A stretch of DNA of 64,000 bases, taken from assembly GCA_963714275.1 (NCBI GenBank), contig CAVQNT010000006.1, positions 320,001-384,000 of the forward strand, read 5' to 3'. Shown piece by piece: positions 3,155 to 59,583 of the stretch. Source of the stretch: Candidatus Bathyarchaeota archaeon (GTDB lineage: Archaea; Thermoproteota; Bathyarchaeia; Bathyarchaeales; DTEX01). The notes below the pieces were generated by a model. That model ran no database searches and had not been told where the DNA came from. It saw nothing but the letters and a program-made list of their open reading frames with translations. The position numbers were made by a program, and so were the translations under genes. Within the stretch, counting starts at the first letter, position 1. Each line of letters starts with the position of its first letter.

Positions 3155-3587
3155 ATGTCAAATCAGGACGGGTCAGGTGCGGAACAAAACAAAGCCATAA
3201 AGGTTACTATTGACCAGGTGATGGCGGAAAACCTAAGTTTGAAGCAGATAGTTCAAGATCTGGACCAAACTGTGAAGGATCTTACTTCTCAGCTTAAGGC
3301 TGCGAATGACATGCTTGAAGCGCAAGCGAGGGCGAAGTTGATTGCGGAAATCAAACCCCGCAGCAGATATTCTGATGAGGACTTAACGAAACTTTCGCTT
3401 GACGAACTTAACAAACATCAAGGTTACGCTTGACAACGCTAAGATGCCGAATTTCAAGAACATCCACTTCGGTCCACTTGGGATTGCGGAAGCGAAGGAC
3501 GAGGGACTAACCGTAGGAGACCTATCGGTTGTCGCGGAAGCTAAACGCAAACAGGGAGGAACTAGTTATGCCACAATTTCTCGTTAA
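3155..3587 (+). CDS. Putative capsid scaffolding protein (coiled coil; C-terminal LTVGDLS motif), frameshifted near 3410
   Basis: Heptad-rich N-terminus; ORFs 3155-3433 and 3399-3587 join; canonical position upstream of decoration and capsid genes. Confidence 0.6.
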
Positions 3588-4052: not shown

Positions 4053-4932
4053 ATGAAACCACTTATCAAGAGTTGGGTTAGAAACAGGTTCCTTAACTGA
4101 TGAAGAACTCCGTTACCTTGATAGCAGAGTTGTCCAGACAGTGAGACCTCTGCTTGTTGGTAGGCGGTTGTATCCAGTGTTCAGGCTTCCAAACGCAGGC
4201 GTAAAAACCGTGCGTGGATGGAAAGAAACGGATATGAGCCAAGCGACGATTGACATGAATGGACAAGTTGACGCTTTTGACAGGATTGAACTCGCAGAAT
4301 TCGACATTAAAGTGCCAGTGATCAGTAAAGGCTTCAGGCTTAACTGGAGAGACATTCTTGCTTCCCGCAACGGAGGGATTCCGATTGACGCTCGAAGCAT
4401 GGAGAATGCTGCTCGACAGTGCGCTGAAGAAGAAGATAAACTACTGTTGACAGGAGAAACCGCAGCTTGGAAGGCTCTGGGAATCGAAGGATTAGCTACT
4501 GCTACGGGCAAAGAAACTCAGGGTTCAGGTGGAGCTTGGGGAGCAAGCAGCATCGTTGACGTTAGTGATTGCATTGCTAAGCTCGAGGCAGGTGGACACT
4601 ACGGTCCTTACGCTTTAGTCTTAAGGTCAGCGTGGTATGCGAAGCTGAGAGCATTGATTGCTAACACAGGCATCTTTTATCTTGAAAAGGTGGCTGAGCT
4701 CGTGAAGGCTGGAATCTTCGTGAGCGACAACCTCTATTCAAGCGCTGACGCGACAAACAATCGCTTTAGTTGTTGAGCCCATCAGGAAAACTTTGAGCTC
4801 GTAGTCGGACAAGACATGAACACTTGGACTGTGCAAGACGAAAACATGAACACTAAAGGTAAAGTCTACGAAGTCGTGGCGCCCCGCATCAAAAGACCTG
4901 CATCAATCTGTATTCTTACAGGATTATCTTAG
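4053..4932 (+). CDS. Major capsid protein, HK97 fold, family-1 encapsulin (Linocin_M18)-like; frameshifts near 4068 and 4760-4780
   Basis: Reconstructed ~290 aa: LTDEELRYLDSRVVQTVRPLLVGRRLYP...VPVISKGFRLNWRDI...AARQCAEEEDKLLLTG...GHYGPYALVL...ENFELVVGQD...PASICILT, which matches the encapsulin/linocin pattern. Confidence 0.8.
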
Positions 4933-10493: not shown

Positions 10494-10525
10494 CGTGAAA
10501 ATCTGTAGGAAGGTGGAGAAGGCAT

Positions 10526-10837: not shown

Positions 10838-10925
10838 TCTCTGGATTGTGGAAAAATAAATAGAAAGACATCCACAACTCTAATGTAACCTCGAATATGT
10901 TACGCTTGGGCATTATATCTTTTAG

Positions 10926-11249: not shown

Positions 11250-11324
11250 ACACGTGATTCCCTCATTCTATCGCAATCACAGACCGTATACAAGTCAGGT
11301 ATGACTGTAAGTCGAGTCAACTAG

Positions 11325-11582: not shown

Positions 11583-11585
11583 CTT

Positions 11586-12897: not shown

Positions 12898-13057
12898 CTT
12901 TTAAGCATAATTTTTGTTCCTCAGCTATTAGCGCGCGCCCTAAGCCTTCTCGTCGTTATCTCCATTCATGTCATTACTTTTCGAACAATCGATTTTCCTA
13001 TATTCATCCCAGTTATTGATTCGATAAATACCCAAGGCTCATATCACATAATTCGAT

Positions 13058-13479
13058 TTATATGACTCGTATCTCAGGTTCAATTACTAATTCAGCTTTG
13101 ATTGATTGGGCTACAAGACTGAACTTTTCTGCTAACTTTAAAGCACGTCTAACCGCCTCTTCTCTGCAGTTACGAACTTTTATCTTTGGTCTAAGCATCA
13201 TCTTTTTGAAAACTGAAGTGCGGTCCAGTAGATCCTCAACAAGCCTTCAGCCTCACACTCGTAGGAAACCAAGTCAATCTTCAATTTCTCAACACTCCAG
13301 ATGAACATCAACTGGAAACACATATTCAAAGCACCTACAAAGGCATCCTCAGGGGTAAGCACATTGGGTTGGCCATATAATGCTGCTGGAGCTGAGAAAT
13401 CCATTCGTGCGCCGTTGCTACACGTTATCTCCCCTATGTGACCTCCCTTCCAAATGGCTGTCGTCTTGTATGATGGCAT
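13058..13479 (-). CDS. OsmC family protein (SACOL1771-like), frameshifted
   Basis: TPEDAFVGALNMCFQL motif; C-terminus SLVAQSIKAELVIEPEI in another frame. Confidence 0.75.
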
Positions 13480-13507
13480 GTCTCCTCATCTACCTCTTGT
13501 GAAGATA

Positions 13508-13894
13508 TCATCCATAGCAGTCAGCAATCTCTTCAGCCACTTTTGAGGCTGCTTCTATTCCCTCTTCGTTTAGTTCTCGCCTTGGACTAGGATTCTTCAC
13601 ACCCCATTTTTTCAGCAGATCGGAAACCACTATTGAACATGCTGTCTTCCCACTGTATTTCTCGATGGCTTTCTTAGCACATCTCTTCTCGCAGCCATCA
13701 ACCGCTATGGTTGGGAAGTACTTGGCGAACATCCTCTCGCCCTTCTCTCCAATTGAGAAGAGAGGAAGACAGATCGTTACAGTATTATCAGGTCTCAATT
13801 TTTCTAAGACAAAGCGGGTGGCTATCCTAGAGATAGTTCCCTCGACACAGCATTCGCCACTGCAGGAGACAACTCCAATCTTAGGTGTGCTCAT
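13508..13894 (-). CDS. DGC-domain putative zinc-binding protein
   Basis: VVSCSG, TICL and IAVDGCEKRCA motifs. Confidence 0.85.
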   Translation of the reverse strand: MSTPKIGVVSCSGECCVEGTISRIATRFVLEKLRPDNTVTICLPLFSIGEKGERMFAKYFPTIAVDGCEKRCAKKAIEKYSGKTACSIVVSDLLKKWGVKNPSPRRELNEEGIEAASKVAEEIADCYG

Positions 13895-14301
13895 GAAACA
13901 ACACCTTTATGGTTCAATTCATCTACCTTCAATGCAATCTTCTCAGCCAATATTCTAGATAATTTTCGTCCATCCTCGTCAAGAAAGGTTACACCATTAG
14001 GTTTTAGGTTTCTGTTTTCCCTAAGAATGTCGACAACTCTGAAACTTGCGACTAATTTGGCGTCTGAGAGTTCAAGGTTTTTCTTTGCGCATTCATTAGG
14101 ACAGCCGTCCACGGCGATGCATCGATGAGATTTAACTGAGCGTCTGGCATCTTCATCGCCCATTACGAGTAGGGAGAGACAGAGGGTGTCTGTTTCATCT
14201 TTCTTCAGGTCTTCGACAACACAGTATGTTGCATCTCTACTGATGGTACCGAAGGACTTCCCTATGCCGCTGCAGGGAATAATTAAGACTGGATCAGACA
14301 T
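13891..14301 (-). CDS. DGC-domain putative zinc-binding protein (paralog)
   Basis: IPCSG, TLCL and IAVDGCPNECA motifs. Confidence 0.85.
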   Translation of the reverse strand: MSDPVLIIPCSGIGKSFGTISRDATYCVVEDLKKDETDTLCLSLLVMGDEDARRSVKSHRCIAVDGCPNECAKKNLELSDAKLVASFRVVDILRENRNLKPNGVTFLDEDGRKLSRILAEKIALKVDELNHKGVVS

Positions 14302-14304
14302 GTT

Positions 14305-14773
14305 CTATACCTCCTTCTTACTACTCTTCCTCAGTTCATCCTTAATCTTTGATTTCATCAACTCAAAGTATTTCTCTGCTGTCATGAGATGCTGCTTATC
14401 TTCTTCAAGATTGGAGGGAGAGATTAGGACAAGCCAGCCTTCTCCATAGGGATCCTCGTTAATTAATTCAGGCTTATCATTCAGTGTTGCATTGACTTCT
14501 GTAATGGTGCCGTCGAAAGGAGAGACTATTGACACGACTGCCTTTATTGTTTCGAAACTCGAAATTTCATCTCCTCGTCTTACAGTCTTTCCTTTTTGTG
14601 GAAGTTCCACGAATACGGCGTCTCCTCCTCGTCTTTGGAGAAAGTCAGTTATGCCGATTTTGGCTTTGCCATTTCTCAATCTCAATCCAGACATCATTCT
14701 CCGTGTAGAGAAGACCTTTTTTTACCGTGAAGATGAACTTGTCAGCTACTTCCTGATAAAAATCATCACTCAT
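14305..14773 (-). CDS. Glycine cleavage H-like lipoyl-carrier protein (frameshifts in 5' part)
   Basis: IGITDF, FETIKAV (lipoyl Lys), INEDPYGEGWL; N-terminus MSDDFYQEVADKFIF read manually from ATG 14773. Confidence 0.85.
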
Positions 14774-14801
14774 ACTGGTCACTTCAAAACATTATTTGGG
14801 A

Positions 14802-14989
14802 TTAAGACTGTTTTTTCTTTGCTTGACAATCGAAGCAGTAATCACTGTCAGAGTTTGTCCAGAAGACTTTACCGCAGTCTGGGCAGGTTGCTTTTCTTAG
14901 TAAGTCGTTCTTTGGAGGACAGCTGCTCGAAGTAGGTCTTGTAGGTTTTGTGTGCAGGCGCATCCTTTTTGTGTCTCGTTTTTAGACAT
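14802..14989 (-). CDS. Small Cys-rich protein (CAC plus CPDC/CFDC), not in the ORF track
   Basis: Manual reading across frameshifts: GCACTQNLQDLLRAA...LLRKATCPDCGKVFWTNSDSDYCFDCQAKKKQS*. Confidence 0.5.
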
Positions 14990-15138
14990 CTCTCTTAGCC
15001 TCTTTGGCGTTAGGAGATTATAGATATTAATATATTTAAATTTATCGAATTATTGCATTGAATCAAAATATTTAAATATATTGTACAAGGCAAGATAGTA
15101 TTGAAGAATTTTACTGATGTGCAACGAAATGCAGACTA

Positions 15139-15550
15139 ATGGAGAAGCAAAAGGAGCACTAAAAGGCTTGAGAGGCTTGTCTGCTCAGGTTTACGACCAG
15201 AAGAGGACCTGGAGAAATACGCGATTGAACTGAAGACTATGGCTGATGAAGCAACAGATGAGAAAACGATTGATACTAAGACACGACTCTTAAAGGCGCT
15301 GGCCAATGAAACGAGACTGAAGATGTTGAAACTCCTCAGCAAGAGGGAAATGTGCGTCTGTGAGTTGACAGTCGCCTTAGACTTAACCCAGCCAACTGCA
15401 TCCCATCATCTCAATATACTGGAAAATATGGGGTTGATAAAGGACAAGAAGAAGGGAAAGTGGGTATTCTACAGTGTTACCAACCCTGAATTAACCCAAC
15501 ACTTCTTCGACTTCCTAGGATTAAAAAGTAAATCCAAAAAAAGATTCTAG
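15139..15550 (+). CDS. arsR: ArsR/SmtB family As(III)-responsive repressor
   Basis: ALANETRLKML, EMCVCEL metal-binding box, SHHLNIL and GKWVFYS; upstream of acr3 (start uncertain). Confidence 0.85.
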
Positions 15551-15643
15551 TTTTTCATAGCTCAATAGTAGAAATCAATAGATTTAAATATTTAGATATG
15601 ATAAGTCTAGCTAAATCCATGATTGTAAGAGGAATCTTAGTGA

Positions 15644-16679
15644 ATGGCATCCGCAACTCAAGAAACTGAAGAAGTAACTCTCGGTATTTTCGAAAAATAT
15701 CTCACGCTATGGATAGCAATATGCATCGTCGTTGGTCTACTCTTAGGCAGGTTCTTACCCCAGTTTGGTCAGTACTTAGACTCTCTGAAGTTCGGTCAGA
15801 TATCGATCCCCATCGGCATACTTCTCTTCCTCATGATGTATCCGACCGTTGTCGGCATCAGCTTCAGCGACGTCAAGAAGGCGACCAAGTTCCCAAAGCC
15901 CATGCTAATCACAATAATCGCCAACTGGGTTATAGCCCCACCACTAATGGCACTCTACGCAAACTTTTTCCTCAAAGGAAACCCACAATTCATCGCAGGC
16001 GCAATTCTTCTAGGGATTTCGCCATGCACCGCCATGGTCCTCTGGTGGATAAAGATGGCTCGAGGCGACCTCGGCCAAGGCCTAGTAAACACGGCAATCA
16101 ACGCCCTTCTTATGATTGCACTCTACGGCACCGAAGCTGCCTTCTACTTGGGGGTCAGCAGTATACCTGTCCCTTGGGACCTTATCGTTTGGAGCGTCAT
16201 ACTCTTCATAGCTGTCCCAGTAAGCCTCGCAGCACTCACCAGAAGGACTCTTCTACTTAGCAAAGGCGAGGCTTGGTTCGAAGGACGATTCAGACCAATA
16301 CTTAGGAAAAATCTCGATCATAGCCCTACTCACAACCCTCATAGTCATGTTTTCACTGCAAGGAGAGATAATTCTCACCCAACCTCTCACAGTCGCTCTA
16401 ATCGCCGTTCCCCTCCTGGTCCACTACGCATCGATGATAGCTATCACTTATGGTGCATGCTGGTTTACGAATCTTGACTATAAATCCGCAGCACCCACCG
16501 TTCTCATTGGCTCAAGCAGCCATTTTGAGGTTGCGATCGCTGTCGCTACAACCCTCTTCGGTCTAGGATCTGGTGCTGCTCTAGCCACCGTAATAGGCCC
16601 TTTGATGGAGGTACCCCTTATGATTTCACTAACGAAGTTCTCTGGCATACCAGAGGCAAATTTCCCAAATCTAAACTAG
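15644..16679 (+). CDS. acr3: Acr3 arsenite efflux transporter (frameshift near 16310)
   Basis: FEKYLTLW, LMMYP, SPCTAMV, SHFEVAIAVA and GPLMEVP motifs. Confidence 0.9.
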
Positions 16680-16725
16680 GAAAATAATTAAAATTTAAAT
16701 AGAAGGGAGAAAAAGGTGAGAATTT

Positions 16726-17484
16726 ATGGATAAAAAGAAAACAAAAAATGTTGTTAAAGAGAGATATGCATCAATTGCTCAAACTAAAGGTTCCTGTTGC
16801 TCATCCTCCTGCTGCGATACTAGAGATCTCACTGAAATCGGGAAAAAAGTAGGATACACTGAAGCCGATTTGAGAAACGTGCCTGAGGCTGCGAACATGG
16901 GTCTTGGCTGTGGTAACCCAGTTGCATTGCGTCTCTTAAGAAAGGAGAAGACTGTCCTAGACCTGGGTTCTGGAGGCGGAATCGATGTCTTTCTTGCAGC
17001 CAAGAAAGTCGGGTCCAAGGGAAAGGTCATCGGTGTGGACATGACGGATGCGATGGTTAAACGAGCTAAATTGAATGCTGTCAAGAACGGTTATAAAAAC
17101 GTCGAGTTCAGACTGGGCGAGATTGAGAAGCTTCCCATTGACGATGAATCAATAGATGTTATCATCAGCAACTGCGTCATCAACCTCTCAACAGATAAAG
17201 ATCAGGTATTCAGAGAAGCTTATCGCGTCCTGAAGACGGGTGGTAGGCTCATGGTCTCAGATTTGGTGACTGAGGGTGAGCTTCCAGAAGAGGTACGGAA
17301 AAGCTTCGACGCATGGGCATGCTGCATCGGTGGCGCCCTAGAGAAGCAACAGTATCTGGAAAGTATCAGGAAAGCAGGTTTCAAAGACGTTCAAATACTC
17401 TCAGAGGTAGCCTACGATATTGATGTATCTAGAGAGTTGAATGGAAAGATAACGAGCGTTCATGTTGAAGCCTACAAGAAGTAG
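16726..17484 (+). CDS. arsM: Arsenite S-adenosylmethionine methyltransferase
   Basis: SCC..CC, GLGCGNP, LDLGSGGGID, ISNCVINL and WACCIGGA motifs. Confidence 0.92.
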   Translation: MDKKKTKNVVKERYASIAQTKGSCCSSSCCDTRDLTEIGKKVGYTEADLRNVPEAANMGLGCGNPVALRLLRKEKTVLDLGSGGGIDVFLAAKKVGSKGKVIGVDMTDAMVKRAKLNAVKNGYKNVEFRLGEIEKLPIDDESIDVIISNCVINLSTDKDQVFREAYRVLKTGGRLMVSDLVTEGELPEEVRKSFDAWACCIGGALEKQQYLESIRKAGFKDVQILSEVAYDIDVSRELNGKITSVHVEAYKK

Positions 17485-17702
17485 ATGGCAACAAAAAACG
17501 TGCGTAATAGACGAGTTATACGCTACTAACATCGTCTTTCACAATAGCTTGCTAACCGTTAATTGAGCCTTTTTACTAGCTCACTACAGATTTTATGACT
17601 CTTACTTTAAGATAAAGACTTTAAGATGCAGAATCATAGAGTCCTGATTATAGATTATTTCGCCAAAATAAGTTAAATATAGTCTTATTTACATAGTTTG
17701 TT

Positions 17703-23422: not shown

Positions 23423-24141
23423 ATGACAAGATATGTAAATGAAGATGCTGAAACGAAGGTTCAAGTTCTGGATAGTAATGGAAACCCAGCGACTGGAGCA
23501 ACGGTTCTCTACAAAATATATGATGAGGCAGACGTGCTTTTCGATTCTGGTTCGATGAGCCATATTGCAGACGGCATTTTTACTTTACAGTGGACACCCG
23601 ATGCTGTTGGCGAGTGGACTTTCGAAGCTTACAGTAATAATCCTAAGTTCAGAGATTCAAAGGTTTACAAGATTGAGTCTATCTTAGCTTTCAAGCATAA
23701 ACCAGACATCTGGGACACTCACGAACCACCAGACCAAAATACATGGTATACCCCGCTCGACGTTAGTGGCGGAGCAAGAGTTAAACTGATAGCGATGGAG
23801 CAAACAAACGATGAATCCAGCGACCAAAAATATTGAGTGGGAGTTTACAATAGACGGCGTGGTTGTCACTGACACTTTAGCATCGGAACATGGCAAGTAT
23901 TACTCGTTTGTTACAACTTATCACGGTGGCATAGAGCCTATTGAGGGATATGAACAAGTGGCTGACGTTCGGAGTTCAAAAAAGAGATTGGGTATCTTCT
24001 GAACCCTACGAAATTGAGTCTTCAGAAGGATTTTCAGAAATGCACGCATTCAAATTTAGATACCGTATGACTTCAGCACCAGGCACAAACCAAGAGATGC
24101 ACTGCGTAATTGTCTATGATAAATTGGAGAGGGAAAGCTAA
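23423..24141 (+). CDS. Tail-tip/receptor-binding protein, paralog 1 (frameshifted)
   Basis: Ig-like N-terminus ending GEWTFEAYSNNPKF, shared with the next gene. Confidence 0.5.
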
Positions 24142-24909
24142 ATGGTGAGATATGCACACGCCGATATTACTACAAAGATTCAAGTCTTAGATTCTGATGG
24201 AACCCCAGCTAACGATGCAACGGTGAACTGGAAAATTTACGATCCAAGTAACGAACTGTGGGACGATGGCGCAATGACATACATCACGGGTTCTAACGGG
24301 TTATATAGGCAATTATGGCATCCTAACTCGGCAGGAGAATGGATTTTCGAAGCTTACAGTAATAACCCAAAATTCCACCAAAGCTTCGCTTACCACGTAA
24401 CAAATTTTGACGCTCTCGTATGGACATTCCACAAAAACGAAGAATGGGAAGTCCAGATGTGGCCACCACCGAGCAATTGGGCGAACCTTTTGGAAGGCGA
24501 AGGAGGCATTAGACCTTACATCATTCAATTCTGGTGGGACAATGATGAACACGGTCCAGCCCGAACTTTCAGCATTAGCGTCATCATTGACGGCATAGAA
24601 CAGGGGAATCAGCAAGACCTTGAAACAAACACTCCACAACACACTTATTACCTGAAATTGAACGCTAACTTTCAGCCCCAGTTTGTATGTGACGCTGACG
24701 ACGAATTCACGACATTTGGTCCAACAGCGGGATACGGTAGTCCAGGCGGCGGCATACACGTTTCTGATAACCCGTTTGAATGCCATACTATTGTAATCAA
24801 AATTTGCTTTGACGACCCTGAAGGCGCTGGAACTAATCCTGTTGCTTATGCAAGTGTCTTCTATCAAACTTTAGACCCCGTTACCTATGGCGAAGGTTAT
24901 CAAGATTAA
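24142..24909 (+). CDS. Tail-tip/receptor-binding protein, paralog 2
   Basis: N-terminal ~85 aa homologous to the previous gene; divergent C-terminus. Confidence 0.55.
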   Translation: MVRYAHADITTKIQVLDSDGTPANDATVNWKIYDPSNELWDDGAMTYITGSNGLYRQLWHPNSAGEWIFEAYSNNPKFHQSFAYHVTNFDALVWTFHKNEEWEVQMWPPPSNWANLLEGEGGIRPYIIQFWWDNDEHGPARTFSISVIIDGIEQGNQQDLETNTPQHTYYLKLNANFQPQFVCDADDEFTTFGPTAGYGSPGGGIHVSDNPFECHTIVIKICFDDPEGAGTNPVAYASVFYQTLDPVTYGEGYQD

Positions 24910-28085: not shown

Positions 28086-28350
28086 ATGACTGCTTGGGGA
28101 AGCAAGAGAAGCAGGCTTGAAATTTACTTGGACATCCTGAAGGTTTTGCGGAAGGGAGAATCAAGGCCTACGCGGATAATGTATCAGTCAAACTTATCAT
28201 GGAAGCCATTGATGAAGATTCTGGACAGTTTAATAAAGCAGGAAATTGTCGAAGCAACTCAAGATCAACTTTCACAATGTTTACCGCTTAACCAAAAAAG
28301 GCTTTGACGTTCTCGAATATTTCAAAAATGCAGAACTGGAGACTAACTGA
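28086..28350 (+). CDS. Winged-helix regulator (RSRLEIYLDIL family)
   Basis: KRSRLEIYLDIL...PTRIMYQSNLSW; paralog at 43112-43381. Confidence 0.75.
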
Positions 28351-36239: not shown

Positions 36240-37292
36240 AACCTGCTTCCTTACCGATTTCATAGTCTGCAAAATATTAGGACAATACGAATCTGAATTG
36301 TCATTCGGGAAGAAGCTACTTCGCAGCCTAATACCTTAAGACGTTCGAGCGAGCATTTGCACGCGTTCATTGATATATCTGAACCTATCCATTTTCGAGA
36401 TGATTTGAAACACACGACTCCCGATGTTCCCGAACCTGCAAATGGATCATAGATAACCTGACCAGGGTAGAAGAACAAGTCACAATCCTATCTAACAGTG
36501 CTTCGGGTTTTTGCGTCGGATACACCATTTTCTTACTGTGGACTGGTTTTATATCGATCCAAATATCTTGAAGTTGTTTTCCACTCATCTCATCGAGATA
36601 ACGCTTGAGATATGGAAGTTCTCCTTTCTTTTGCTCAATCCTACCATTTTTGAGTAATTCGAGCATCTTGGGTTTGTTATAACGCCAGTACCGTTCTACG
36701 CCAAAGAATTCATATATTGGGTTGCCTTTGACTGATGCTTCCGGCCTGTTAATCTCCCAAAGCATACCTACGTTTCGTAAAAGACTCTACGTATCGATAT
36801 GCTCCTTCAATATAATATTCGTCATATGGAACATACTGTTGATTCGACATAATCTGATGATTTGGTATAGATTAAAATCGTGTCATGGATACGCCCAAAA
36901 TGACGGCTTCCTTGTCCCGAATCATTGTGAGAACTCTGGCGTTTCCAAATCTATTCATTTAGGAAGTTGCTTCTTTCAAATATATCGTAGGCTAAAACCT
37001 TCAGGTTGTGGGAACTATGCCAGTCACAGTGAATATATATCGACGCAGTATACTTCATTATTCTTTTGAATTCCAGCAATCGTTGCTCAATCCAATCAAG
37101 ATATTCACATAATCCGTTCCATTTGTCCTCATAGTGATAGTTGCCTATTTGATATGTTCGATTTGAAAAGAATGGAGGATCAACATATATTAAGTCCACA
37201 GAGGAATCAGGAAGCCTTCTACATGTTTCCAAACAATCCTCATGAAAGAGGGAGTACTCTCCTAATTCTGTAACACGTGTGATTTTTTCCAT
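36240..37292 (-). CDS. N6A/N4C DNA methyltransferase (beta class), frameshifted
   Basis: LIYVDPPF, YPTQKPEALL and DPFAGSGT. Confidence 0.85.
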
Positions 37293-37349
37293 TTTCGAGC
37301 GCCTTGAGTTGAAAAATGGTATATTATATATCGCCAAAAGACAGTTGAG

Positions 37350-38630
37350 GAAATCCGCATACTTATAACATATGTAAGCTGCACTAGCAATGTCTGCTGA
37401 GACTGCTCAGTTTCTGGCATATCACGAACCAGCACTCCCTGGAATGCTTTGGACATTAGAGAATTAAATAGTTTAGTAATTTCTTGAGTAGATTGTTTTT
37501 GTCTATTTCTAAGAGCTTCAACTTGTTCTACAATAGAAGCAAATTTCTCTTGAAGCTCTTTGGGTGGAATTGGAACTTGAATCCGCTTTACATCTTTCAC
37601 GATAATCCTTCTTATTGCGCTGCCTGACTTCATGTCAGTTGCTTGTTTCAAAATGGACTTATTCTTAAGAAGGTATTCAAGAAACTTTTGGTTGATTGCT
37701 CTTGGATCGGGACGTATAATTGCAAGTGAAGATAGGACAATAAATTCCTTATTGAAATCGATTGAAACAACTTTTCCGACAGTGCCATCTTTCGAAAATA
37801 ATACATCCCCTGGTTTTGGATTACAATTCTTTTTTAGTCTTTCATAGTCATCATTCGAAATGAAACTGCAATCACTGAAATCAATCCCGTCATCTTTAAC
37901 ATGTTTCACAGTGATAAACGGAAGCCCAGTTTCAAAGAAGGGAGGAGTAAAATGGCTACCATCGGACAGATATAGACAGACATTCTCAAGAGAGCGTATG
38001 GGATAATTGTTAGGATTAACCGAAGGATCTCCAAACATCTGCAAAAAAACAACTTGAAGAATCCTGTTAGTCATCTGATTTGCTTGATCTCGTTTTTGTC
38101 GTAAACCTGTAGTTCTATTTAGAATGTTTACGATGTTTTTCTGAACCACCAAAGGCGGAAGAGCCACCTTGAATTTATTCAGACTTGAGATTGTAATATG
38201 TGGGAATGATGTCTTGCCAGCAATTTTCTCTAATTACTCTTTGTGAGCAAGCAAATAATATGCCAGATAATCAGGGATGACATCAACTAAACATTTGAAG
38301 GAATTGAACTGTTGATTGGTACAAAGTTTAATTCTATTTATTGCAACTTTGCCAACCGTGGCGGTACATGTCAATAAAACAGAATTAGTCGGAATCAGGA
38401 TAGCAGAACTTTTTCGAAGACCTTCCTCTGTAATTTTTCGTTCAGTATTCTAAAACATAGTTTATATAATTCTCTTGAAGTTCGGAATTTGAAAGCCAGT
38501 GTATCGTACCTTGCTCCCAATACTCACGCTTTGCCTTGCTCGGGGTACCACCACTAAATCTTTGAAAATATTTAGTATCCCCAAGTTCGACTATTTTCCA
38601 ATTTTGTGGAGAATTTATATCTTCAATCAT
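37350..38630 (-). CDS. hsdS: Type I R-M specificity subunit (frameshifted)
   Basis: GGTPSK, TNQQFN, LPPL..Q, FLQMFGDP and IPPKELQEKF: two TRDs with conserved spacers. Confidence 0.88.
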
Positions 38631-40115
38631 TCTAAAAATTCTCTCAGATTCTTCAATTCTCCAGAGATTTGTTCCTCTAACTCCATGATGTTATTGATCA
38701 ATATCTTTGGATCTTCGTATTCAACATCTTCTCGTTCAACATTTCTTGTATCTTGAAATGGATAGATTGTAATCATTCTGCTTTATCTTCTCAAAAGGCA
38801 CCAAGACACTTTGGTTTGATTCCTCTCGTTTCTCGAAATTTTTGAATGATGTCGGGGATGTCACCTTTGCCATCGATGAATTCACGTTTTTGGTCAAGGC
38901 TGTATCCGTCTTTTCGCATTTCATAGAACCAAACTTTGTCAGTCTTACCACCTTTCACGAAAACAAGGACTGCAGTACCAACACCGGAGTAGGGTTGGAA
39001 AACTCCTGAAGGCATGGATATTACTGCTTCAAGTTGACAATTTTCTAACAGAAGTTTTCTGGCTTTGACATGAGCATTTGATGAACCAAATAAGACACCA
39101 TTTGGAACGATAACTGCAGCTCTTCCACCGATTCTTAGTAAGTTGTAGAACAGTTCCAGAAATAGAAGTTCAGTCTTTGTGGTGTCTATTTTGAAAGCGT
39201 CATTAATGTCGCTCTTATCGATTGACCCAGCAAATGGTGGATTAGCAAAGACAATATCATATCGTGCTTTTTGTTCAAATCTTCTTTGAGAGTGTATCAG
39301 CATAACGAATGTTTGGTCTTTCAATTCCGTGGAGAATCATGTTCATAAGCCCAATGCGAACCATCGTTGTGTCAAAATCAAATCCGTAGAATGTTTCTCG
39401 TTTCAGAAGGTTCCAATGAGATTTTTCAACTATTTTATCTCCAATCAAGATTGTGCAGTGAACCATCTTCATGGATATTTATGATATCATCACTTGTGTA
39501 TTTTCTCAAAATATGTTCATAGGCAGCAATCAGAAAGCCAGCTGTGCCACAAGCAGGGTCACAAATAGTCTGCCCAATATCTGGATCAACAAGTTCAATC
39601 ATCATCCGAATGATATGTCTTGGCGTTCTGAATTGTCCATTCTTCCCAGCAGTCTTCAGCTCAGCAAGTAGATGCTCATAGATGTCTCCTTGAGTGTCTT
39701 GATTCCGTTCAGTAATGTTCATCTCATCGATAATTGCTACTGCTTCTTGCAGAAGCGAAGCCTTTGGAATAACAAACACGGCATCCTTCATGTACTGCGA
39801 ATACAGAACATCATCGCCATTTGTCAGATTCTTGATGAAGGGAAAAACGACTTCTTGAACATGCTTCAGCATCGCTTCAGCGTTTAGATGCTTCCACTGT
39901 GACCATCTACAATTTTCATGTCCTTCAAAAATGGATATGTGTTTCTCGTTTCTCGCTGCTGCCCTTCTTGCATGAATACTATCCAGATCTTCCAGTCGTT
40001 TCATGAAAATCAGATAAGACATCTGCTCAATTGCAGTGAGTGGATTGGCTATTCCACCAGACCAAAACCTATCCCAGAGTTTGTTAATCTGCGATTTTAA
40101 TTCAGGCGCTAGCAC
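38627..40115 (-). CDS. hsdm: Type I R-M methyltransferase (frameshifted)
   Basis: [33 protein letters not shown]. Confidence 0.92.
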
Positions 40116-42916
40116 GAATAACTTCTACCTCCAATTTGTCGCATAGCTGAATCACTTCTTTAAGTTCATCGTTATTGAAAAGTGGAATAGGGGCGTTAAC
40201 ACCGAAGTTAGTGAATGGCGGCTCAAACAGATCACTATACTCTATATGATGTTTTTTTAAGAATACGGTTTGAATTGTGCGGAGGAAATTCACTTGGTCA
40301 GAGTTAAGGTAGTTCTTCTCTATTATAAAGGCTTTGAATGCTTCCTCAATTCTCTTCTTTGCATCGGGAAATTCGTAGAGACCTAGAATTTTCTTGATAA
40401 ACTGGACGAGAGTTCCCTTGTGTTGTCTGTATGCTTTCTGCAGAATTTCTTCAGTGATGTAGAGTTCTGGGCCATTCAAGGTCTTCTCCAAGTTTTTCAG
40501 ATCTTCTTCTGTGAGAACTCTCGTCATGTTTAATTTTCTTAATCGTGGGATGCTGTTCAGCGAGTTGTTTGATTCTCTTCTCAACCTTGTCAATGTATGT
40601 CGTAGCATATTCTTGAGTTGGAACAGGCCCATACTCAATAAACTCTCTCTTCTGTACAACATCATCAATGTCAAGGATTATCGTAGGTCTAGGTTCTGGC
40701 TGTTTATATTTCATTAACGGTGTGAACTCTTTGAGAAGAATTTGGGCATCATCGAAGGACACGTTTTTCCAGTATTGTGGGCGTAAGACTTTATCAAGCA
40801 GTTCCTGTTTATCCTTCACTTCATTAATTGTAGTCGGTAATGCGTAAAGCCACTCACCTATGTCATCCTTCAACCTATCAATCTCGTCTCTATTATTCCG
40901 TAAAATCGCAAGATTCAACTGTTCAATTTTCAAAGCCCAAGACGCTTCATTTGGGTTAACATCCTTCTGGTAACGCATCAAAGGCGCAATCTTCGTCTTC
41001 AAAAAGACTGGAGCATCTATTCCAACTGTGTCCCACAACCTCGGCGAGACCGCCTTCTCAATATCCCGTTCATGTTCCCTTATCGTAATAGAATCATAAG
41101 GCAACAATTTGATGTCTTGAATAAGTTTCTCCTTTACAAGTTCAGCTCGGTTGTCCTTTGTTTCAAGTAAATAATTCAATTGTTGAAGTCTAGTTAGGAA
41201 GATTCTTGTAGGAACAGCTTCACTCGGTTTAGCTTCCTTGCCCTCGGGGTGCATGTTATGCCATTCGAAGTTATTCCAAAAATCAAAAATCAGGAAATTC
41301 TCTTTCCTTCCATCCGGTAACCAATCCCTATGTTCACATATTCTATCGTGCCTTGTTCCCCGCCCTATCATCTGCCAAAATCGTATTTTGGAAAATACAG
41401 GTTTCGCGAAGACAAGATTGCAGACTTCTGGAATGTCCACACCAGTATCAAGCATACCAACAGAAATAGCAACACGTGGAAAGCTCTCTTTCTTGAATTC
41501 TTTGAGAAGCTCGTCCGCTCTCTGATCCTCTGAGACTATTCGTCTCGCTATTCGCCCTTTATACTCAGGATATAATTTTTCAAATGCTTCCCATAACCGT
41601 GTTGCATGCTTCTGCGAGACTGCAAAAATAATTGTTTTCGCTGGCAGTGTTCCCGTAAAATCCATTAGACATTCATCCATAAACTCCTTGACGATCGCCT
41701 CATTTGTTCCCAGTACAGCGACTTTCTTCTCGATATCTGTCCCTTCAAAATTGATCTCTTCCTCTGAAATTGCCTGCTCCTCAAGCAATTTCTTTTTTAT
41801 CGCGTCTGGAACATCACTTGGCCTAATACCTTCAATTTGAAAATGAGTTTGAGCCACATATATTTGGTAGTCAGCGAGCCAACCGTCCTTAACCGCTTCT
41901 TCATAAGTGTAGAGATAAGTTGGAATACTATTCTCACAATTGAAGAATCTAAAAGTGTCACGTTCGATTAGGTCCGACGGTGTTGCTGTGAGTCCTATCT
42001 CAATTGCATCAAAATACGTGAAAACTTCCTTCCACTTATTGTAGATAGAACGATGGGCTTCATCAGAAATGATTACATCAAAATCTCCTGGGGAGAATTC
42101 TTGATAACATTCCATAAAAGTCTGAATTGTAGAGGCGTAAAGCCGCGGTGTCTTGTCAACTTTTCCCGAGAACACTTTAACTTTCGATTCGTTAGGGAAG
42201 AAAGTTTTGAACCCGTTATCTCCGTATGCTTGGTCTCTCAACTCCTTTCTATCAGCCAGAAATAGAATCCTTTGGGCGCGATTCGCTCTCAACAGAACAT
42301 CAATAAGCGCCATTGCGACGCGAGTCTTTCCTGATCCCGTTGCTTGAACGATCAAGAATTTCCTTTTACCCTTATCTATTCCCTCAAGTACTCTTTTAAC
42401 TGATTCAATTTGATATGGTCGGTCAATGATGTCTTTGCTGATAGGAACCTCTGAGAAATCCTTCTTCGAATAATTCTGGAATCGAATGCGCTCAAGTGAG
42501 GCTCTATCATGATAACCGCTAACCGCTCGTGGTGCTTCGAAGGGTTTATTACAAAACCATATTTCATAACCGTTCGTCAGGAAAATGAAAACATCCTTCC
42601 CAGTCTGCTTCTTGATATCATTGGCATAATCTTCAGCCTGTTTTTGTCCAGAGAGATAATCTTTTTCTGTTCGTTTTGCTTCGATAACAGCCAAGGGTAA
42701 TCCATATGAATCTAGTAGAAGATAATCTGCGTACGCCTTTTCTTCTGGGCTCTTTAGAGTTTGAGCCACTGTCTTGTAGTTTCCAGCTTTGAAATCCGAT
42801 TGTTTAGTATCAACTTCTTGGATGACTTTGCTTCTATCATTAACGTCCCAACCCGTTTTCTTCAATAAAACATCTATTTTTTCTCTGCGTGTTCTGTACT
42901 CGGATGCTTTAGCCAT
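40102..42916 (-). CDS. hsdR: Type I R-M restriction subunit, EcoEI-like (frameshift near 40520)
   Basis: ADY...IEAK nuclease motif, ATGSGKT, DEAH, LTATP, QMIGRGTR. Confidence 0.93.
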
Positions 42917-43111: not shown

Positions 43112-43381
43112 TTATTTAATTTCGATGAGTTGCATGGCTTCGTGGAAGTAGTTGAGCACGTTCAAGCCTTTCTCTGTGATCTTGTAGGTTATGTGGCATC
43201 CCAACTCTTCAGAAGTAATCCACTTTTGCTCCATCATTGTGTCGAGAACCTGCATAAGAGGCTTCCAGGAAAGGTTAGTACTGTACATGATTCGTGTAGG
43301 CTTGTTGACGCCTTTCTTTATTGCCTGTAAGATGTCGAGGTAAATTTCGATCCGTGAACGTTTAGAGCTCAATTTAAACAC
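43112..43381 (-). CDS. Winged-helix regulator, paralog of 28086
   Basis: KRSRIEIYLDIL...PTRIMYSTNLSW...YKITEKG. Confidence 0.8.
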   Translation of the reverse strand: MFKLSSKRSRIEIYLDILQAIKKGVNKPTRIMYSTNLSWKPLMQVLDTMMEQKWITSEELGCHITYKITEKGLNVLNYFHEAMQLIEIK

Positions 43382-49087: not shown

Positions 49088-50308
49088 ATGGGCAGGGGAG
49101 TGGCTGGCTTCCACAGCTCCGTCAACGCATTCTTTTCACCAAAGCAGGTTCAAACCCCAGATGGGAAGTCCGACATGCATAGCGTCGGCCTGCACCAGCC
49201 CCCCATATGCCCAGAATGTGGCTCATCCAAAGCCTGGAAAGATGGGTTTAGACATGCAGATCAAGGTCTAGTGCAAAGATGGCTCTGCAGAAGCTGCGGA
49301 AAAAGGTTTAGCCAATCAAGCCTAACCAATAAAAAGGAGGACCAGCACACTTTAATGTACCAAGTATGCGTTGCTGACGGAGCTACGAAAAACTTGGACA
49401 CAGTAGAAACCCGAGAAGATGAGGCTAAGCGGGAAGCCACACCAACTTTAGAATTTGCATGGAAACAAAAGAAACGTGGATTATCTGATTCGACTATAAT
49501 GACAAGAACATATAGACTTAAAGTGTTAATGCAAAAAGGAGCAGACCTTTACAATCCTGATAGTGTAGAAACAGTTTTAGCGACGAGCTCATGGACACAA
49601 GCAAATAAACAATTCTTCATCATGGCTTATCATTCGTTCTGTAAAACTATGAACATATCTTGGATACCTGTTAAAGTCAAATATGAACCGAAACAGCCAT
49701 TCATACCTTTAGAAACAGAGATAGATCAATTAATAGCAGGTTGCGGAAAGAGAACAGCCACATTCTTACAAACATTGAAAGAAACAGGTGCAAGAAGCGG
49801 AGAGGTCGCTAAGCTCAAGTGGACTGACGTAAACGAAAAAAACAACACCATAGCCATAAACGATCCAGAGAAAAACAGTAACTCCAGAACCCTAAAAGTT
49901 TCAAGTAAATTAATAGCCATGTTAAACGCCATGCCAAAAAGCAGTATCTTCGTATTCTGCACACACGTAAGATCAATTTACGGCGCATTCTCAAGACAGA
50001 GAAATAAACTGTCAAGAACCCTTCAGAATCCAAGAATCAAGCAAATACACTTTCATACCTTAAGGCATTGGAAAGCCACAATGGAATACCACAGAACCCG
50101 AGACATACTTTACGTGAAACATCTATTAGGACATAAACGATTAGAGAACACAGAAGGTTATACACACTTAATAGACTTTGAATCTGATGAATATTGCGTA
50201 TCACACGCTAAAACCTTAAAAGAAGAAAATACACTCTTAGAAACAGGCTTTGAGTTTATACGATATTCTCAAGAGGATAAAGTAGCCATATACCGAAAGA
50301 GAAAGTAG
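49088..50308 (+). CDS. int: Tyrosine recombinase/integrase with N-terminal zinc ribbon
   Basis: CPECG...WLCRSCG; catalytic TGAR, K, HTLRH, LGH and Y residues. Confidence 0.92.
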   Translation: MGRGVAGFHSSVNAFFSPKQVQTPDGKSDMHSVGLHQPPICPECGSSKAWKDGFRHADQGLVQRWLCRSCGKRFSQSSLTNKKEDQHTLMYQVCVADGATKNLDTVETREDEAKREATPTLEFAWKQKKRGLSDSTIMTRTYRLKVLMQKGADLYNPDSVETVLATSSWTQANKQFFIMAYHSFCKTMNISWIPVKVKYEPKQPFIPLETEIDQLIAGCGKRTATFLQTLKETGARSGEVAKLKWTDVNEKNNTIAINDPEKNSNSRTLKVSSKLIAMLNAMPKSSIFVFCTHVRSIYGAFSRQRNKLSRTLQNPRIKQIHFHTLRHWKATMEYHRTRDILYVKHLLGHKRLENTEGYTHLIDFESDEYCVSHAKTLKEENTLLETGFEFIRYSQEDKVAIYRKRK

Positions 50309-56137: not shown

Positions 56138-56400
56138 GCCTTAGACCACGACAAATAAATGGACACTATTAAATATAGAATAAATAGTTATACACGATTT
56201 CTCGCCGAGAAAATTTTTTTTTCAATCATTTGACAAGAACTGTAATCTTGAGGATACCATAAACGTTTCAGAAAAGAATTTTGTTCAAGATTTTTGATTT
56301 TTTTGATGAACTAGATTTCGTTTTTTATATCTAGAGTGCTTAAGATTCAGGATTAGTTTGGTATGAAACCAATGCATAATGAGAATAGCAATTGCATCTA

Positions 56401-56583
56401 TTATTTTATTTGAACAACATTTTTGATGCCTTCAAAGTGGGGGTCTCCTGTCAGGATTTTTGACTCAGTAATTTTTGACACAGCTGATACGTAAGCGTAC
56501 GACAGTCCGAAATCCTTCTTGGTCTTCCCCACATTAGCATGTAATGTACCTGCATCCCCTGAGACTTCGATGTCAATATCCAC
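56401..56583 (-). pseudogene. PIN/VapC toxin C-terminal remnant
   Basis: FGLS.AY......KILTGDPHF; N-terminus missing. Confidence 0.55.
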
Positions 56584-56669
56584 GATAACCGAGTTGCCTG
56601 TTTGAATATTATAGGCTGTTTCAGCGTTCCGCCCTTCTCGAATGGTCTAGCTCGACTGCTGGCTAGCAA

Positions 56670-56969
56670 ATGATCCTAAAAAAACAGGTTGAGCTAACGG
56701 TGGGCGATTTGTCAATCGCGAAAGAAAGACAACGCCATAGAGACCTCGAATGGATCAAGAAGCCAATTAACAATGATTCAGACGTCACTATCGGAGACCT
56801 CTCTATCGCACAAAAAGATAACAGGGGCTTAGACGAGTCTCACGAGGATCCAAAAGCAAGCGACATAAAACCGTGTACGTCGGAATCTCAGAGACTTCAA
56901 TGGGAACTTAATAAAGATTGGCGAGAGAAGCAACAAAAAGTTCAAGGGATAAAAGTCGGCAACAGATAG
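56670..56969 (+). CDS. Orphan protein with two (L/V)T(V/I)GDLSI motifs
   Basis: LTVGDLSIA at 56694 and VTIGDLSIA at 56784. Confidence 0.55.
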   Translation: MILKKQVELTVGDLSIAKERQRHRDLEWIKKPINNDSDVTIGDLSIAQKDNRGLDESHEDPKASDIKPCTSESQRLQWELNKDWREKQQKVQGIKVGNR

Positions 56970-57130
56970 ACCCTTGAAATCCTGATTAACGAAGACTCTC
57001 TTATCCGCTAAATACCTTAGAGGCGAACGACAGACTTGGATTCTTAGAATAGTAGAGCCTTTTGCTAGTGTTAGAAATAAACTAATAAATCATAATATAT
57101 AGTCAATTCAAATTTATAATAGGGAAGATT

Positions 57131-58513
57131 ATGTTAAAAAATACCTCCATCTACAATTTTAAAAGCATACAAAAAATAGAAACCTTGGAGCTTAAACCTT
57201 TAACTATACTAACGGGTGTCAACTCGTCAGGAAAAAGCAACATATTAGAAGCTTTATCTTTTTTTGCTCAAGCATCGCGATTTCGTGAAGTTTTTCCCGA
57301 TCGTAGACCAACCATGGAAGCTGTTTTTGTGGATAGTGAAATGAAAAGGTATCCGATCGAGATAGGAAAATTCATTGTCTTCAAGGGGAATGCAAATAAC
57401 TCGGTGACACTGGAAATTTCCACTGGATTGATTGATCCACTTGCTGACTATATTGGAGAGAAATTAGAAACAATCAAGAAAGCAGTTATTGTTTTCCCTA
57501 AAGGAATTACTAGAATAATTCAAAAATCATTACTCGAGACAGTCGGCTATTCTATCTCATTTAAACTATCTACCCCAATATCTTATTCACAAAGAATTTT
57601 AATTAATGGAGATACATTAATCGAAATAAATCAAATCTTGGGGGAAACTCCTGCCAGAGTAATTTTTCCTAAGGGTTTTGAGCAAACACAAGTTTTGTCT
57701 CAATTGAATGAGGTTTTCAATACTGAAGTATTTAGGCTACAAAAAGCTGATCCTCAAATTGATTTATTTGAGCTCACTGTTCTTTTTGATATTGCTCGTT
57801 CAATCCTTGAATATATCAAAAGTATTGCAGAAAAAATCTATTTCATATCTGGAGAAAGAGGTCAAATAAACGCAGAGGAGCGTATTAGGGATGACCAACG
57901 AGGGTTTCCACCATCTTGGATAGGTTTTAAAGGTCAACACTTAATGGAAATTCTATCTCGTTGTCATATACGCGACCCTGAGAAGTTCAGAAGAATTCAA
58001 GAATGGGGAGAGAAATTTCAGCTCTCTAATATCAGAGCAGGCTATACGGAAAGGAACATACTCGAATCCCAGTTTCTTGACGATACTATAGGAGTTAGCT
58101 TAAATTCTGCTTTGGCAGGACTTGGCTCTAGACAAATTTTATCAGTAATCACTCAGATCTTTTGGTCTGAACCAGATAGTCTTATCATGATAGAAGAACC
58201 CGAAATTAGTCTTCATCCGAAGAACCAAGTATTGCTACACGAATTGTTTGCTGAAGCAATCTCAGAAGGAAAACAGATCATTTGTTCAACACATAGCCCA
58301 TTCTTTATACTAGCCTTATCGAAGATAATTAAGAAAAAGCTACTGAATCTTGATGACGTTGCTGTATATCATATAAAGAAGGATTCCAAAGGAACATGTG
58401 TCGAACCAATGTCATTAAACAAACATGGATTCATAAAAAAGGGAGTACCTAACTTCATGGAAGTTGAAGAGGATTTATTCAAGGATTGGTCTGAAACTCT
58501 AGAGGAAAAGTAA
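57131..58513 (+). CDS. AAA_15/AAA_21 (ABC-class) ATPase, defence-associated type
   Basis: NFKSI, GVNSSGKS, GLGSRQ, IEEPEISLHP, STHS. Confidence 0.88.
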   Translation: MLKNTSIYNFKSIQKIETLELKPLTILTGVNSSGKSNILEALSFFAQASRFREVFPDRRPTMEAVFVDSEMKRYPIEIGKFIVFKGNANNSVTLEISTGLIDPLADYIGEKLETIKKAVIVFPKGITRIIQKSLLETVGYSISFKLSTPISYSQRILINGDTLIEINQILGETPARVIFPKGFEQTQVLSQLNEVFNTEVFRLQKADPQIDLFELTVLFDIARSILEYIKSIAEKIYFISGERGQINAEERIRDDQRGFPPSWIGFKGQHLMEILSRCHIRDPEKFRRIQEWGEKFQLSNIRAGYTERNILESQFLDDTIGVSLNSALAGLGSRQILSVITQIFWSEPDSLIMIEEPEISLHPKNQVLLHELFAEAISEGKQIICSTHSPFFILALSKIIKKKLLNLDDVAVYHIKKDSKGTCVEPMSLNKHGFIKKGVPNFMEVEEDLFKDWSETLEEK

Positions 58514-58514
58514 C

Positions 58515-58890
58515 TTGTCCTATATTCTAATTGATACTTGTGTCTTCCTAAGATTGCCAGCTGATTATAGACAAGCGTTCGAATGTTTCATGGTAACTTC
58601 CGATGTGATTGCTATAACGAAGGGGATTCTTAATGAGTATAAGTCTCGAGCATATACAAGCAAAATAATCCTACAAGCGTTTTTTCAAGCATTGGAGGCA
58701 AAGGACAAACTGAAATTCTTCAATCGAAGCTATATTGAATCTCGTATAAATCGATATCATAGAACCGTAAATTATCCTGTCCATAAACGCGATAAAAAAT
58801 GGATCAATGTAGCCATTGCAATTAAAAGCTACTTACATCATAAGTACTAACAGTCATCTACTAGATATTTCTCCAATTAAGATTAATGAA
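58515..58890 (+). CDS. PIN-domain nuclease partner of the ATPase
   Basis: ILIDTCVF...EY...DKKWINVA; end probably frameshifted. Confidence 0.6.
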
Positions 58891-59292
58891 AAATTCGTGG
58901 AGACAGTTTTGCCTTCTCAATATACTGAAATACGTTGTCCTAGCTCCTAACTTGTCTACATACACAAAGTTGGGTATCTTATATTCTCGTGTATGTGTCT
59001 GTCTCTCTCTGTGTGCACTGTGTGTCACTCTGTATAGTGTGAGAGAGAGCGCGATAGCGCGTGAGAACGTTATTGCGTGCGTGTGCGGGAGCAAGGGGAA
59101 AAAGGTTAAAATTTAATCCCTAAGCCTAAACTCTCTACAAAACCAGCGAAGCATAAATCATGTGATTTTACGGTTGTATGTCCATCAGCTATAAAAATCT
59201 AAAAACACAAAATTCTCTTCAGTCATTTTTATGGGTCAAACATTCTGAACCTATTTGAAGAGTTCATATGTTGAAATTAAATAGTTTCCAGA

Positions 59293-59583
59293 TTGTATAT
59301 ACACTGTATATACAGTTTAAGGAGAAACAAAAAAATAAGGCAGGTTTTCAGCATAAGAATCAACCCGGAAGTGTGGATGGCAGCCCATAAAAAAGGCTTA
59401 AATATCAGCCAGATTTGTGAACAGACCCTGAAAACAGCAGTTCAAAAGGGAGGAAACCTCGGAACCGTAGGTTCTGGATGGTGGACTGGGGGGGATTTGA
59501 ACCCCCGACCTCCTGAGTGCAAGTCAGGCGTTCATGCCAGGCTGAACTACCAGCCCAGTGCGTGTAACAGTTTCTGTCATTAA
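59293..59583 (+). CDS. RHH/CcdA-antitoxin-like ORF running antisense into tRNA-Ala (possible Int(N) fragment)
   Basis: FSIRINPEVWMAAHKKGLNISQICEQTL; 3' part is the antisense translation of the tRNA. Confidence 0.45.
   Translation: MYIHCIYSLRRNKKIRQVFSIRINPEVWMAAHKKGLNISQICEQTLKTAVQKGGNLGTVGSGWWTGGDLNPRPPECKSGVHARLNYQPSACNSFCH
59479..59556 (-). tRNA. tRNA-Ala(TGC), CCA encoded
   Basis: GGGCTGG/CCAGTCC acceptor with G-U, anticodon arm CCTGA-CTTGCAC-TCAGG, GTTCAAATC T-loop. Confidence 0.95.

Follow-up and report, generated by a model that had tools for sequence, protein, structure and literature searches.

Tandem copies of a probable viral scaffold-anchor peptide in a protein family of small tRNA-associated elements from Bathyarchaeia

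The window analysed here is a stretch of 64,000 nucleotides (nt) from the genome of a Candidatus Bathyarchaeota archaeon (assembly GCA_963714275.1; contig CAVQNT010000006.1, here C6, positions 320001-384000), which comprises 2.64 Mb in 10 contigs with 43% G+C. Towards one end it contains the head module of a provirus and towards the other ORF99, a small open reading frame (ORF) in an islet at the 3' end of a tRNA-Ala gene. ORF99 carries two copies of a peptide that is also found close to the C-terminus of the provirus scaffolding protein. It belongs to a family of proteins which, judged from their sequences, are probably multivalent mimics of the scaffold anchor that dock inside procapsids, for piracy or for interference. 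The original prediction, by which a satellite-like or defence element encodes a scaffold mimic, is a fair reading at the sequence level, as the repeated motif is a family trait and the family is associated with small elements at tRNA genes.

ORF99 and the tandem-anchor family

ORF99 and its conserved parts are arranged as follows.

56670..56969, plus strand: ORF99, 99 amino acids (aa) with an ATG start, a short, 5'-truncated member of the tandem-anchor family
56694..56720, plus strand: anchor copy 1, LTVGDLSIA, starting at residue 9 and 91 residues from the end
56784..56810, plus strand: anchor copy 2, VTIGDLSIA, at residue 39, 30 residues past copy 1 and 61 residues from the end
56817..56900, plus strand: conserved block DNRGLDE..E.PKASDIK..SESQRLQ, invariant among the three closest sequences

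Two motif copies had been noticed in this 99-aa frame, 53 kb from the head module, and their coordinates, sequences and differing codons were confirmed. The first copy is an exact seven-residue match to the scaffold: 53,187 nt separate LTVGDLS of ORF99 (56694) from LTVGDLSVV of the scaffold (3507), and the two share 14 of 21 nucleotides and differ in six of seven codons. The description of the frame as largely low-complexity did not hold. The protein is hydrophilic and charge-rich (grand average of hydropathy -1.14) and has an entropy of 3.05-3.46 bits in windows of 20 residues.

A first search returned two homologues of ORF99 (P0002 and P0003), and both keep the motif. With a profile, 32 representatives were found at E<=1e-3 among 1.84 billion proteins, and a wider profile yielded 69 clusters among 5.8 billion proteins; many of the contigs that encode them have lengths of 5-12 kb. 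No Pfam domain was detected in any of these 69 clusters, and those with a name were all annotated as hypothetical, bar one mislabel. For ORF99 and the member from the same-genus genome G001, nothing credible was obtained from Pfam, PHROGs, NCBIfam or PADLOC, and a sequence search of the PDB with the family profile gave only a coiled-coil match at E 0.22.

A typical member has 150-250 residues and consists of a variable N-terminus, often with a CxxC...CxxC ribbon, followed by a short helix, the anchor array, a SESQ block and a basic tail. Among the closest relatives of ORF99 are also short forms, 103-138 aa long. The SESQ element of ORF99 is common to the wider family according to the family consensus, a basic tail is present after the last anchor, and the C-terminal tail resembles that of homologue P0005. 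In the family alignment, the motif is the most conserved feature, with at least 90% conservation in columns L9, V11, G12, D13 and L14 of copy 1 and in G42 and D43 of copy 2. When copies were counted with the strict anchor pattern [LIVM][TS][VI]GD[LIV], 52 of 93 proteins had two, seven had three, 32 had one and two had none. The gaps between successive copies (n=66) measured 27-31 residues in 56 cases and 58-61 residues in the other 10. Repetition of the scaffold peptide is thus a family trait. Between ORF99 and its homologue on the metagenomic contig L001, the nonsynonymous divergence (dN) was 0.28 and all six motif codons differed synonymously; synonymous sites (dS) were saturated, so that a dN/dS ratio was not computable for this pair.

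The presumed scaffold anchor and its encapsulin counterpart

The head module of the provirus contains the two genes to which the ORF99 motif relates.

3155..3587, plus strand: provirus scaffolding-protein gene, frameshifted near 3408-3433, with the coiled-coil part in 3155..3433 and the motif frame in 3387..3587
3507-3533, plus strand: C-terminal anchor of the scaffold, LTVGDLSVV
4093..4878, plus strand: provirus major capsid protein of the EncA/Linocin_M18 type with one internal stop or frameshift, the presumed docking target

The scaffold copy of the motif was found at 3507 as predicted, but it lies in another frame than the coiled coil, because the gene is split by the frameshift. Intact homologues have 116-170 aa and end in the same peptide. 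Seven scaffolds with identities down to 28% have just eight invariant columns in common, and these include T, V, G and L of the motif. In 108 of the best 120 of 326 scaffold homologues, the strict motif occurs exactly once, 16-21 residues from the C-terminus; the remaining 12 of these 120 have near-variants such as GDM. The peptide takes the form GLTVGDLS(V/I/F/W)(V/S/A)T..KRK. A capsid gene of about 292 codons follows the scaffold gene in 13 of 13 loci checked.

The capsid protein matched Pfam PF04454 with 1.3e-24, or with 8.8e-30 with one TGA. When a profile of 12 capsid relatives was compared with the PDB, the best match was EncA of M. xanthus (E 6.4e-55, residues 8-290). Only two PF04454 genes exist in the source genome, and both are proviral capsid genes beside portal and scaffold genes. 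The second head-module copy lies outside the window (C6:65400-69200). Its capsid is 93% identical with an intact ORF of 292 aa, and its scaffold gene has more frameshifts.

According to work on EncA (PMC11126975), this shell protein binds its cargo (EncB, EncC and EncD) via a conserved LTVGSLR of the cargo, whose Leu, Val and Leu insert into a hydrophobic pocket. In the solved structures presented there, this pocket is on the inner face of the shell, the Arg of the peptide pairs with Asp39 and Asp214 of EncA, and the first Leu is replaced by Phe or Trp in some relatives. The viral peptide keeps Leu, Val and Leu and has Ser in place of the cargo Arg. In the alignment, the viral capsids have Pro and Ala at the positions of D39 and D214 of EncA, and one viral scaffold has WTVGDL with Trp at the first position. 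We infer from this analogy that the C-terminal peptide of the scaffold would be its capsid anchor and homologous to the encapsulin targeting peptide.

The peptide could instead be a handle for another partner (the prohead protease, the portal or a host chaperone, for instance), which the family proteins would titrate in place of the capsid protein. Conservation alone names no partner, and the tie between viral peptide and capsid rests on the EncA comparison. However, the closest solved relative of the capsid binds a near-identical LTVGSLR on its inner face, and the variation seen among the viral sequences fits the encapsulin system, with Leu exchanged for Trp and the Arg lost together with the two Asp. 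A partner other than the capsid protein is considered unlikely.

That a scaffold anchor equals a targeting peptide was not mentioned in the accessible parts of PMC13669383, PMC8346489 and PMC10848311, and searches with the motif strings returned no relevant paper. The first of these, a paper of 2026 on the evolution of viruses and encapsulins, sought the link between scaffold and cargo by global alignment and, in the part available, reports only low similarity (PMC13669383). Among named phages, those whose capsid is distantly similar (Brevundimonas, 26%) have a fused protease-scaffold without a clear motif at its end. The near identity of the viral scaffold peptide and the encapsulin targeting peptide connects the scaffolds of phages with the loading of encapsulin cargo at the level of sequence.

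It was further asked how often a match like that between ORF99 and the scaffold is expected. A six-frame translation of the window contains 18 shared exact 7-mers, from about 12 distinct pairs of places, and therefore the exact 7-mer match is not significant by itself. Across the genome, LTVGDLS was seen four times versus 0.02 expected (5,287,056 six-frame positions). The four sites are the two provirus scaffolds, ORF99 and one match in an alternative frame. The last, at C5:30086 on the minus strand, was taken as chance; it is a stretch of nine codons in an alternative frame of a small ORF that starts with MADGWRPIVV.

Profiles gave the same answer in both directions. A scaffold-tail profile was built from 18 C-terminal 32-mers of scaffolds, none of them from the source genome, and searched against 46,859 six-frame genome segments. 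It found the window scaffold (7e-9), ORF99 (3.5e-5), one weak segment at E 0.5 and nothing else. The same profile matched 85 of the 93 family proteins at E<=0.01. Conversely, the family profile matched scaffold C-termini in eight other genomes (401 genomes of the order) and nine of ten records from IMG/VR. Because of the genome-wide excess of LTVGDLS, the reciprocal profile matches and the retention of the motif in homologues, the likeness of the ORF99 and scaffold peptides is far beyond chance. The shared 7-mers in the window would favour a resemblance by chance, but the specific reciprocal matches, the count of four and the standing of the motif as the most conserved feature of the family leave this reading with a negligible probability.

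ORF99 had also been considered as a possible decayed scaffold fragment from another provirus, since its anchor and the basic stretch that follows resemble a scaffold tail. However, the match between family and scaffolds is limited to the anchor region (profile positions ~62-90) and does not extend to the coiled-coil region. Across its 69 clusters the family has parts of its own, namely the second copy, the SESQ block, the basic tail and, in many cases, a zinc ribbon. No head genes lie near ORF99. Only the anchor peptide is common to both, and an origin of ORF99 as such a fragment is highly improbable.

The tRNA-Ala islet and other settings of family genes

ORF99 shares its islet with the genes listed below.

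56401..56583, minus strand: 60-aa ORF, by eye a C-terminal PIN fragment, in the flank outside the islet, no profile match
56654..59480: islet of 2,827 bp at the tRNA-Ala 3' end with ORF99, an ATPase gene, a PIN-like ORF and a ribbon-helix-helix gene
57131..58513, plus strand: ATPase AAA_15/AAA_21 (ABC/OLD-type); PF13175 1.6e-28, PF13304 6.4e-24; PADLOC NsnB 8.3e-41, AriA 4.1e-32
58515..58950, plus strand: PIN-like ORF in two frames, 58515..58850 and 58816..58950, termed PIN by eye
59293..59478, plus strand: small ribbon-helix-helix-like gene abutting the tRNA 3' end, with a weak CcdA match (E 0.0013) below the cut-off
59479..59556, minus strand: tRNA-Ala(tgc), called by ARAGORN, right border of the islet

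The islet is read as an insertion because one contig of sequencing run X1 joins position 56653 to 59481 (~90% likeness, with 42 letters on the shorter side) and because contigs of X2 and X3 contain the flank 56397-56653 but match no further than 56653. Of the islet itself, the interpretation covers the parts that have contigs in X1-X4. This is good evidence, not proof, that the 2,827 bp are lacking from a related population which is about 90% identical. The islet has no integrase, and neither the islet nor the provirus showed a clean direct repeat, whether of tRNA or att type.

The location at the tRNA-Ala 3' end and the ATPase gene downstream of ORF99 had been described correctly, but the PIN identity of the following ORF was assigned by eye and no match was obtained in Pfam, PADLOC or NCBIfam. 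Its frameshift is likely an artefact of assembly or strain, as contigs of X1, another sample, lack one base at 58824/58825. Single frameshifts split many genes of the window in the same manner (858-2188, 3155-3587, 4141-4878, 8711-9735, 15644-16679 and 58515-58950), which correspond to the portal, the scaffold, the capsid, an ABC ATPase and an arsenite-carrier-like gene (both by eye) and the PIN-like ORF. From these splits and the base that X1 contigs lack, it follows that the assembly is indel-prone.

ORF99 had been proposed to act together with the ATPase/PIN pair as a bait or sensor, where binding of capsid to the anchors would release the nuclease. All three genes do lie in one islet of 2,827 bp, and the ATPase is like those of two-gene defence systems (PADLOC NsnB and AriA). 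However, the pair is not found beside the family gene in the G001 element or in L001, the two other complete contexts, an AT-rich gap of 161 nt separates ORF99 from the ATPase, and the PIN assignment is without profile support. Such a coupling is very unlikely. Because the pair is missing from both other complete contexts, it is read as variable cargo of the islet and not as the partner of ORF99. This arrangement of cargo recalls the defence hotspots of P4-like satellites.

G001 contains a 191-aa member in an element of 7,048 bp (contig C2, L008 6419-13486). The element is bounded by direct repeats of 20 nt, one of which is the 5' end of a tRNA-Pro(cgg). It encodes a tyrosine integrase, a 549-aa zinc-ribbon/P-loop protein, two helix-turn-helix proteins and small ORFs, and contains no capsid gene. 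It is a candidate for a small satellite or integrative plasmid of Bathyarchaeia. Its empty site was not demonstrable in the source genome, where only the tRNA-Pro matches (100% over 78 nt). In genome G340, a decayed fragment of a family gene lies beside the C-terminal remnant of an integrase.

In L001, the family gene is followed by a small ORF and a ribbon-helix-helix-like gene that abuts the 3' end of tRNA-Pro(tgg). The latter gene (3483-3600) is homologous to that of the islet, with 41% over 63 aa. Ribbon-helix-helix-like genes at the 3' ends of different tRNAs suggest a shared element end that targets tRNA genes. The small ORF overlaps the end of the family gene and is co-oriented with it in both G001 (L008 11615-11917) and L001 (2449-2616), with 44% over 36 aa. 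It appears Sm-like by eye only and had no match in Pfam, PHROGs or NCBIfam.

The family is rare among species-representative genomes: in samples of the order, class and phylum with 401 genomes each, full members were found only in the source genome and G001, in addition to the G340 fragment. Searches of genome contigs with family profiles yielded no more than the G001 record and a weak zinc-ribbon match in a bacterium. Of ten IMG/VR records examined in whole, of which two are rated 100% complete, none had a full member and the scaffold was the only match; two pattern scans of IMG/VR gave no family member either. With tblastn, no family match was found in 50,697 phage records or in 72,556 plasmid records. 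These results support the view that the family resides on small tRNA-associated elements and not in the viruses examined.

The wider region of the window is a mosaic of defence and mobile-element genes. Between provirus and islet lie a type I restriction-modification system (37262-42916), whose S, M and R subunits were assigned by Pfam, and a tyrosine integrase (49088-50308). The head module (0.5-6.4 kb) and the next virus-like genes (from ~17.7 kb) lie on either side of about 11 kb of cellular-type genes (6900-17500), among which an ABC transporter, ArsR, an arsenite carrier and a methyltransferase were recognised by eye only. Two runs of shared 7-mers with consistent spacing on opposite strands (28119-28215, plus, and 43273-43368, minus) suggest a short inverted duplicated coding segment, and further shared 7-mers suggest a direct duplication of a coding segment at 23621-23650 and 24346-24375.

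Candidate mechanism and comparison with known systems

According to the proposed mechanism, the family proteins would dock via several anchors onto neighbouring capsid subunits inside the assembling procapsid and would thereby compete with the viral scaffold. Two outcomes may be envisaged. The element could redirect or enter the capsids of its helper, as SaPI1 CpmB does, which would be piracy, or assembly could be poisoned and the host of the element protected, which would be interference. Several internal anchors, regularly spaced by about 30 residues, would be well suited to bridge adjacent subunits from the inside of the capsid.

The anchors might alternatively serve to load the family proteins into virions as passengers, along with anything bound by their C-terminal basic helix or N-terminal zinc ribbon, for delivery to the next cell. 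Encapsulin cargo and phage internal proteins are loaded into shells likewise. The motif equals a cargo-loading peptide, many members have a CxxC...CxxC ribbon and a basic tail, and the small co-oriented ORF overlaps the gene end in G001 and L001. However, a cargo peptide or scaffold anchor occurs once per protein and in a terminal position, whereas the family anchors are internal, tandem and fixed in their spacing, which fits better with bridging of subunits than with tethering of a load. Transport as a passenger is therefore regarded as distinctly unlikely.

Several observations weigh against a role as scaffold mimic, either for the family or for the copy in the window. The function of the scaffold peptide as capsid anchor is itself drawn from EncA. 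Only four genomic contexts were read (G001, G340, L001/L002 and the window), and the family gene is frameshifted in both metagenomic contigs, L001 and L002. The original prediction had named co-occurrence with tRNA-integrated elements and with the capsid type as a check. The former was observed, but the capsid is co-resident in only one of the two genomes with a full member, as G001, which is 98% complete, has no Linocin_M18/PF04454 gene. As for ORF99, its closest relatives carry 36-48 extra N-terminal residues, no remnant of which was found upstream in the window, and the gene is cut off no more than about 25 nt from the edge of the islet. The small ORF that follows the family gene in G001 and L001 is not present after ORF99.

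Since the N-terminal part that precedes the first anchor in the family (helix P..E.L.RS..IL, often with a zinc ribbon) is missing and has left no upstream remnant, ORF99 is classified by its alignment as a truncated family member. With these residues and the downstream ORF missing, the copy may be inert. In that case, an integrated element would have decayed and left of its family gene only the 3' two-thirds as ORF99, with a fortuitous ATG. This is consistent with the start of homology at 56679, the islet edge at 56653/56654 and an islet without integrase, clean direct repeat or downstream partner ORF. On the other hand, the frame is open over all 99 codons, both anchors, the SESQ block and the P0005-like tail are kept, and the closest relatives include the short forms of 103-138 aa. 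An inert relic is a possibility to be taken seriously, yet doubtful on balance, and it does not contradict a mechanism at the level of the family.

Taken in full, the scaffold-mimic reading states that tRNA-integrating elements of Bathyarchaeia use proteins with tandem targeting peptides of the encapsulin type to take over or wreck procapsid assembly, and that the scaffold-to-capsid anchor of the viruses, be they helpers or enemies of the element, is the same peptide. This combined statement is put forward tentatively. If true, it would be the first case of a system, satellite-like or anti-assembly, directed against head-tailed viruses of archaea; no satellite mechanism for these was found in the literature searched. 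Scaffold anchor and encapsulin cargo tag would then be one device, which would illustrate a route from procapsid to encapsulin. For capsid piracy or interference with assembly in such viruses, the family offers a concrete candidate that can be tested, and tandem anchors at fixed spacing could also be a natural multivalent loading tag for shells of the EncA type.

Among known systems, PARIS (AriA/AriB) and Menshen (NsnB) compare with the neighbouring genes only. In these systems as in the islet, the gene of an AAA_15/AAA_21 ATPase precedes that of a small putative nuclease. They differ in that the partner in the islet is PIN-like by eye and not Toprim/DUF4435; no PADLOC model matches it, and a defence role is putative.

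The targeting peptides of Family 1 encapsulins (EncB, EncC and EncD of M. xanthus) have the core L-T-V-G-x-L that occurs twice in ORF99, and their shell is the closest solved relative of the viral capsid. Family 1 cargo, however, has one terminal peptide on an enzyme or ferritin-like domain that is encoded beside the shell gene. For the ORF99 family, the shell would be a viral capsid with portal and scaffold, and the carrier is small, apparently non-enzymatic and encoded on another element. The peptide itself has Asp-Leu-Ser instead of Ser-Leu-Arg. The scaffolds of the EncA-type viruses have a coiled coil, a single C-terminal anchor and a gene in the head module upstream of the capsid gene, none of which applies to ORF99.

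Proteins of mobile elements that act on the capsid assembly of a helper are known from P4 (Sid, an external scaffold) and from phage-inducible chromosomal islands (Ccm, a homologue of the capsid protein), and Rcm of SaPIpT1028 is reportedly a further satellite protein that redirects capsids. The ORF99 family would resemble them in this respect. To our knowledge, none of the three is a tandem array of the anchor peptide of the helper scaffold.

In archaea, pSSVx and pSSVi are small elements that use the particles of helper viruses, and the accessible part of a 2025 preprint names them as the only archaeal satellites described before it (bioRxiv 10.1101/2025.02.15.638363). Their helpers are spindle-shaped viruses that have no HK97-fold capsid or scaffold, which sets them apart from the system proposed here. 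A 2026 preprint is said to concern an Asgard satellite.

The closest comparison is with CpmB of SaPI1. In the accessible part of PMC5644958, CpmB is described to carry the C-terminal motif of the helper scaffold, to compete for the same capsid site and to change the capsid size. As far as that part describes it, CpmB is a dimer with one C-terminal helix-and-hook (RIIK), whereas the ORF99 family has one to three internal tandem anchors. The two are not related in sequence, the host is an archaeon and the capsid of the encapsulin type, and a redirection of capsid size is only conjectural here. The family carries the motif of the helper scaffold, whose docking to the capsid would follow the example of EncA, and in G001 it does so on an element with integrase and direct repeats and without capsid genes, in difference to the window islet with its missing integrase. 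Like CpmB as portrayed in that source, the ORF99 family would thus consist of small proteins from integrated elements without a capsid gene of their own that bear the C-terminal docking motif of a helper scaffold.

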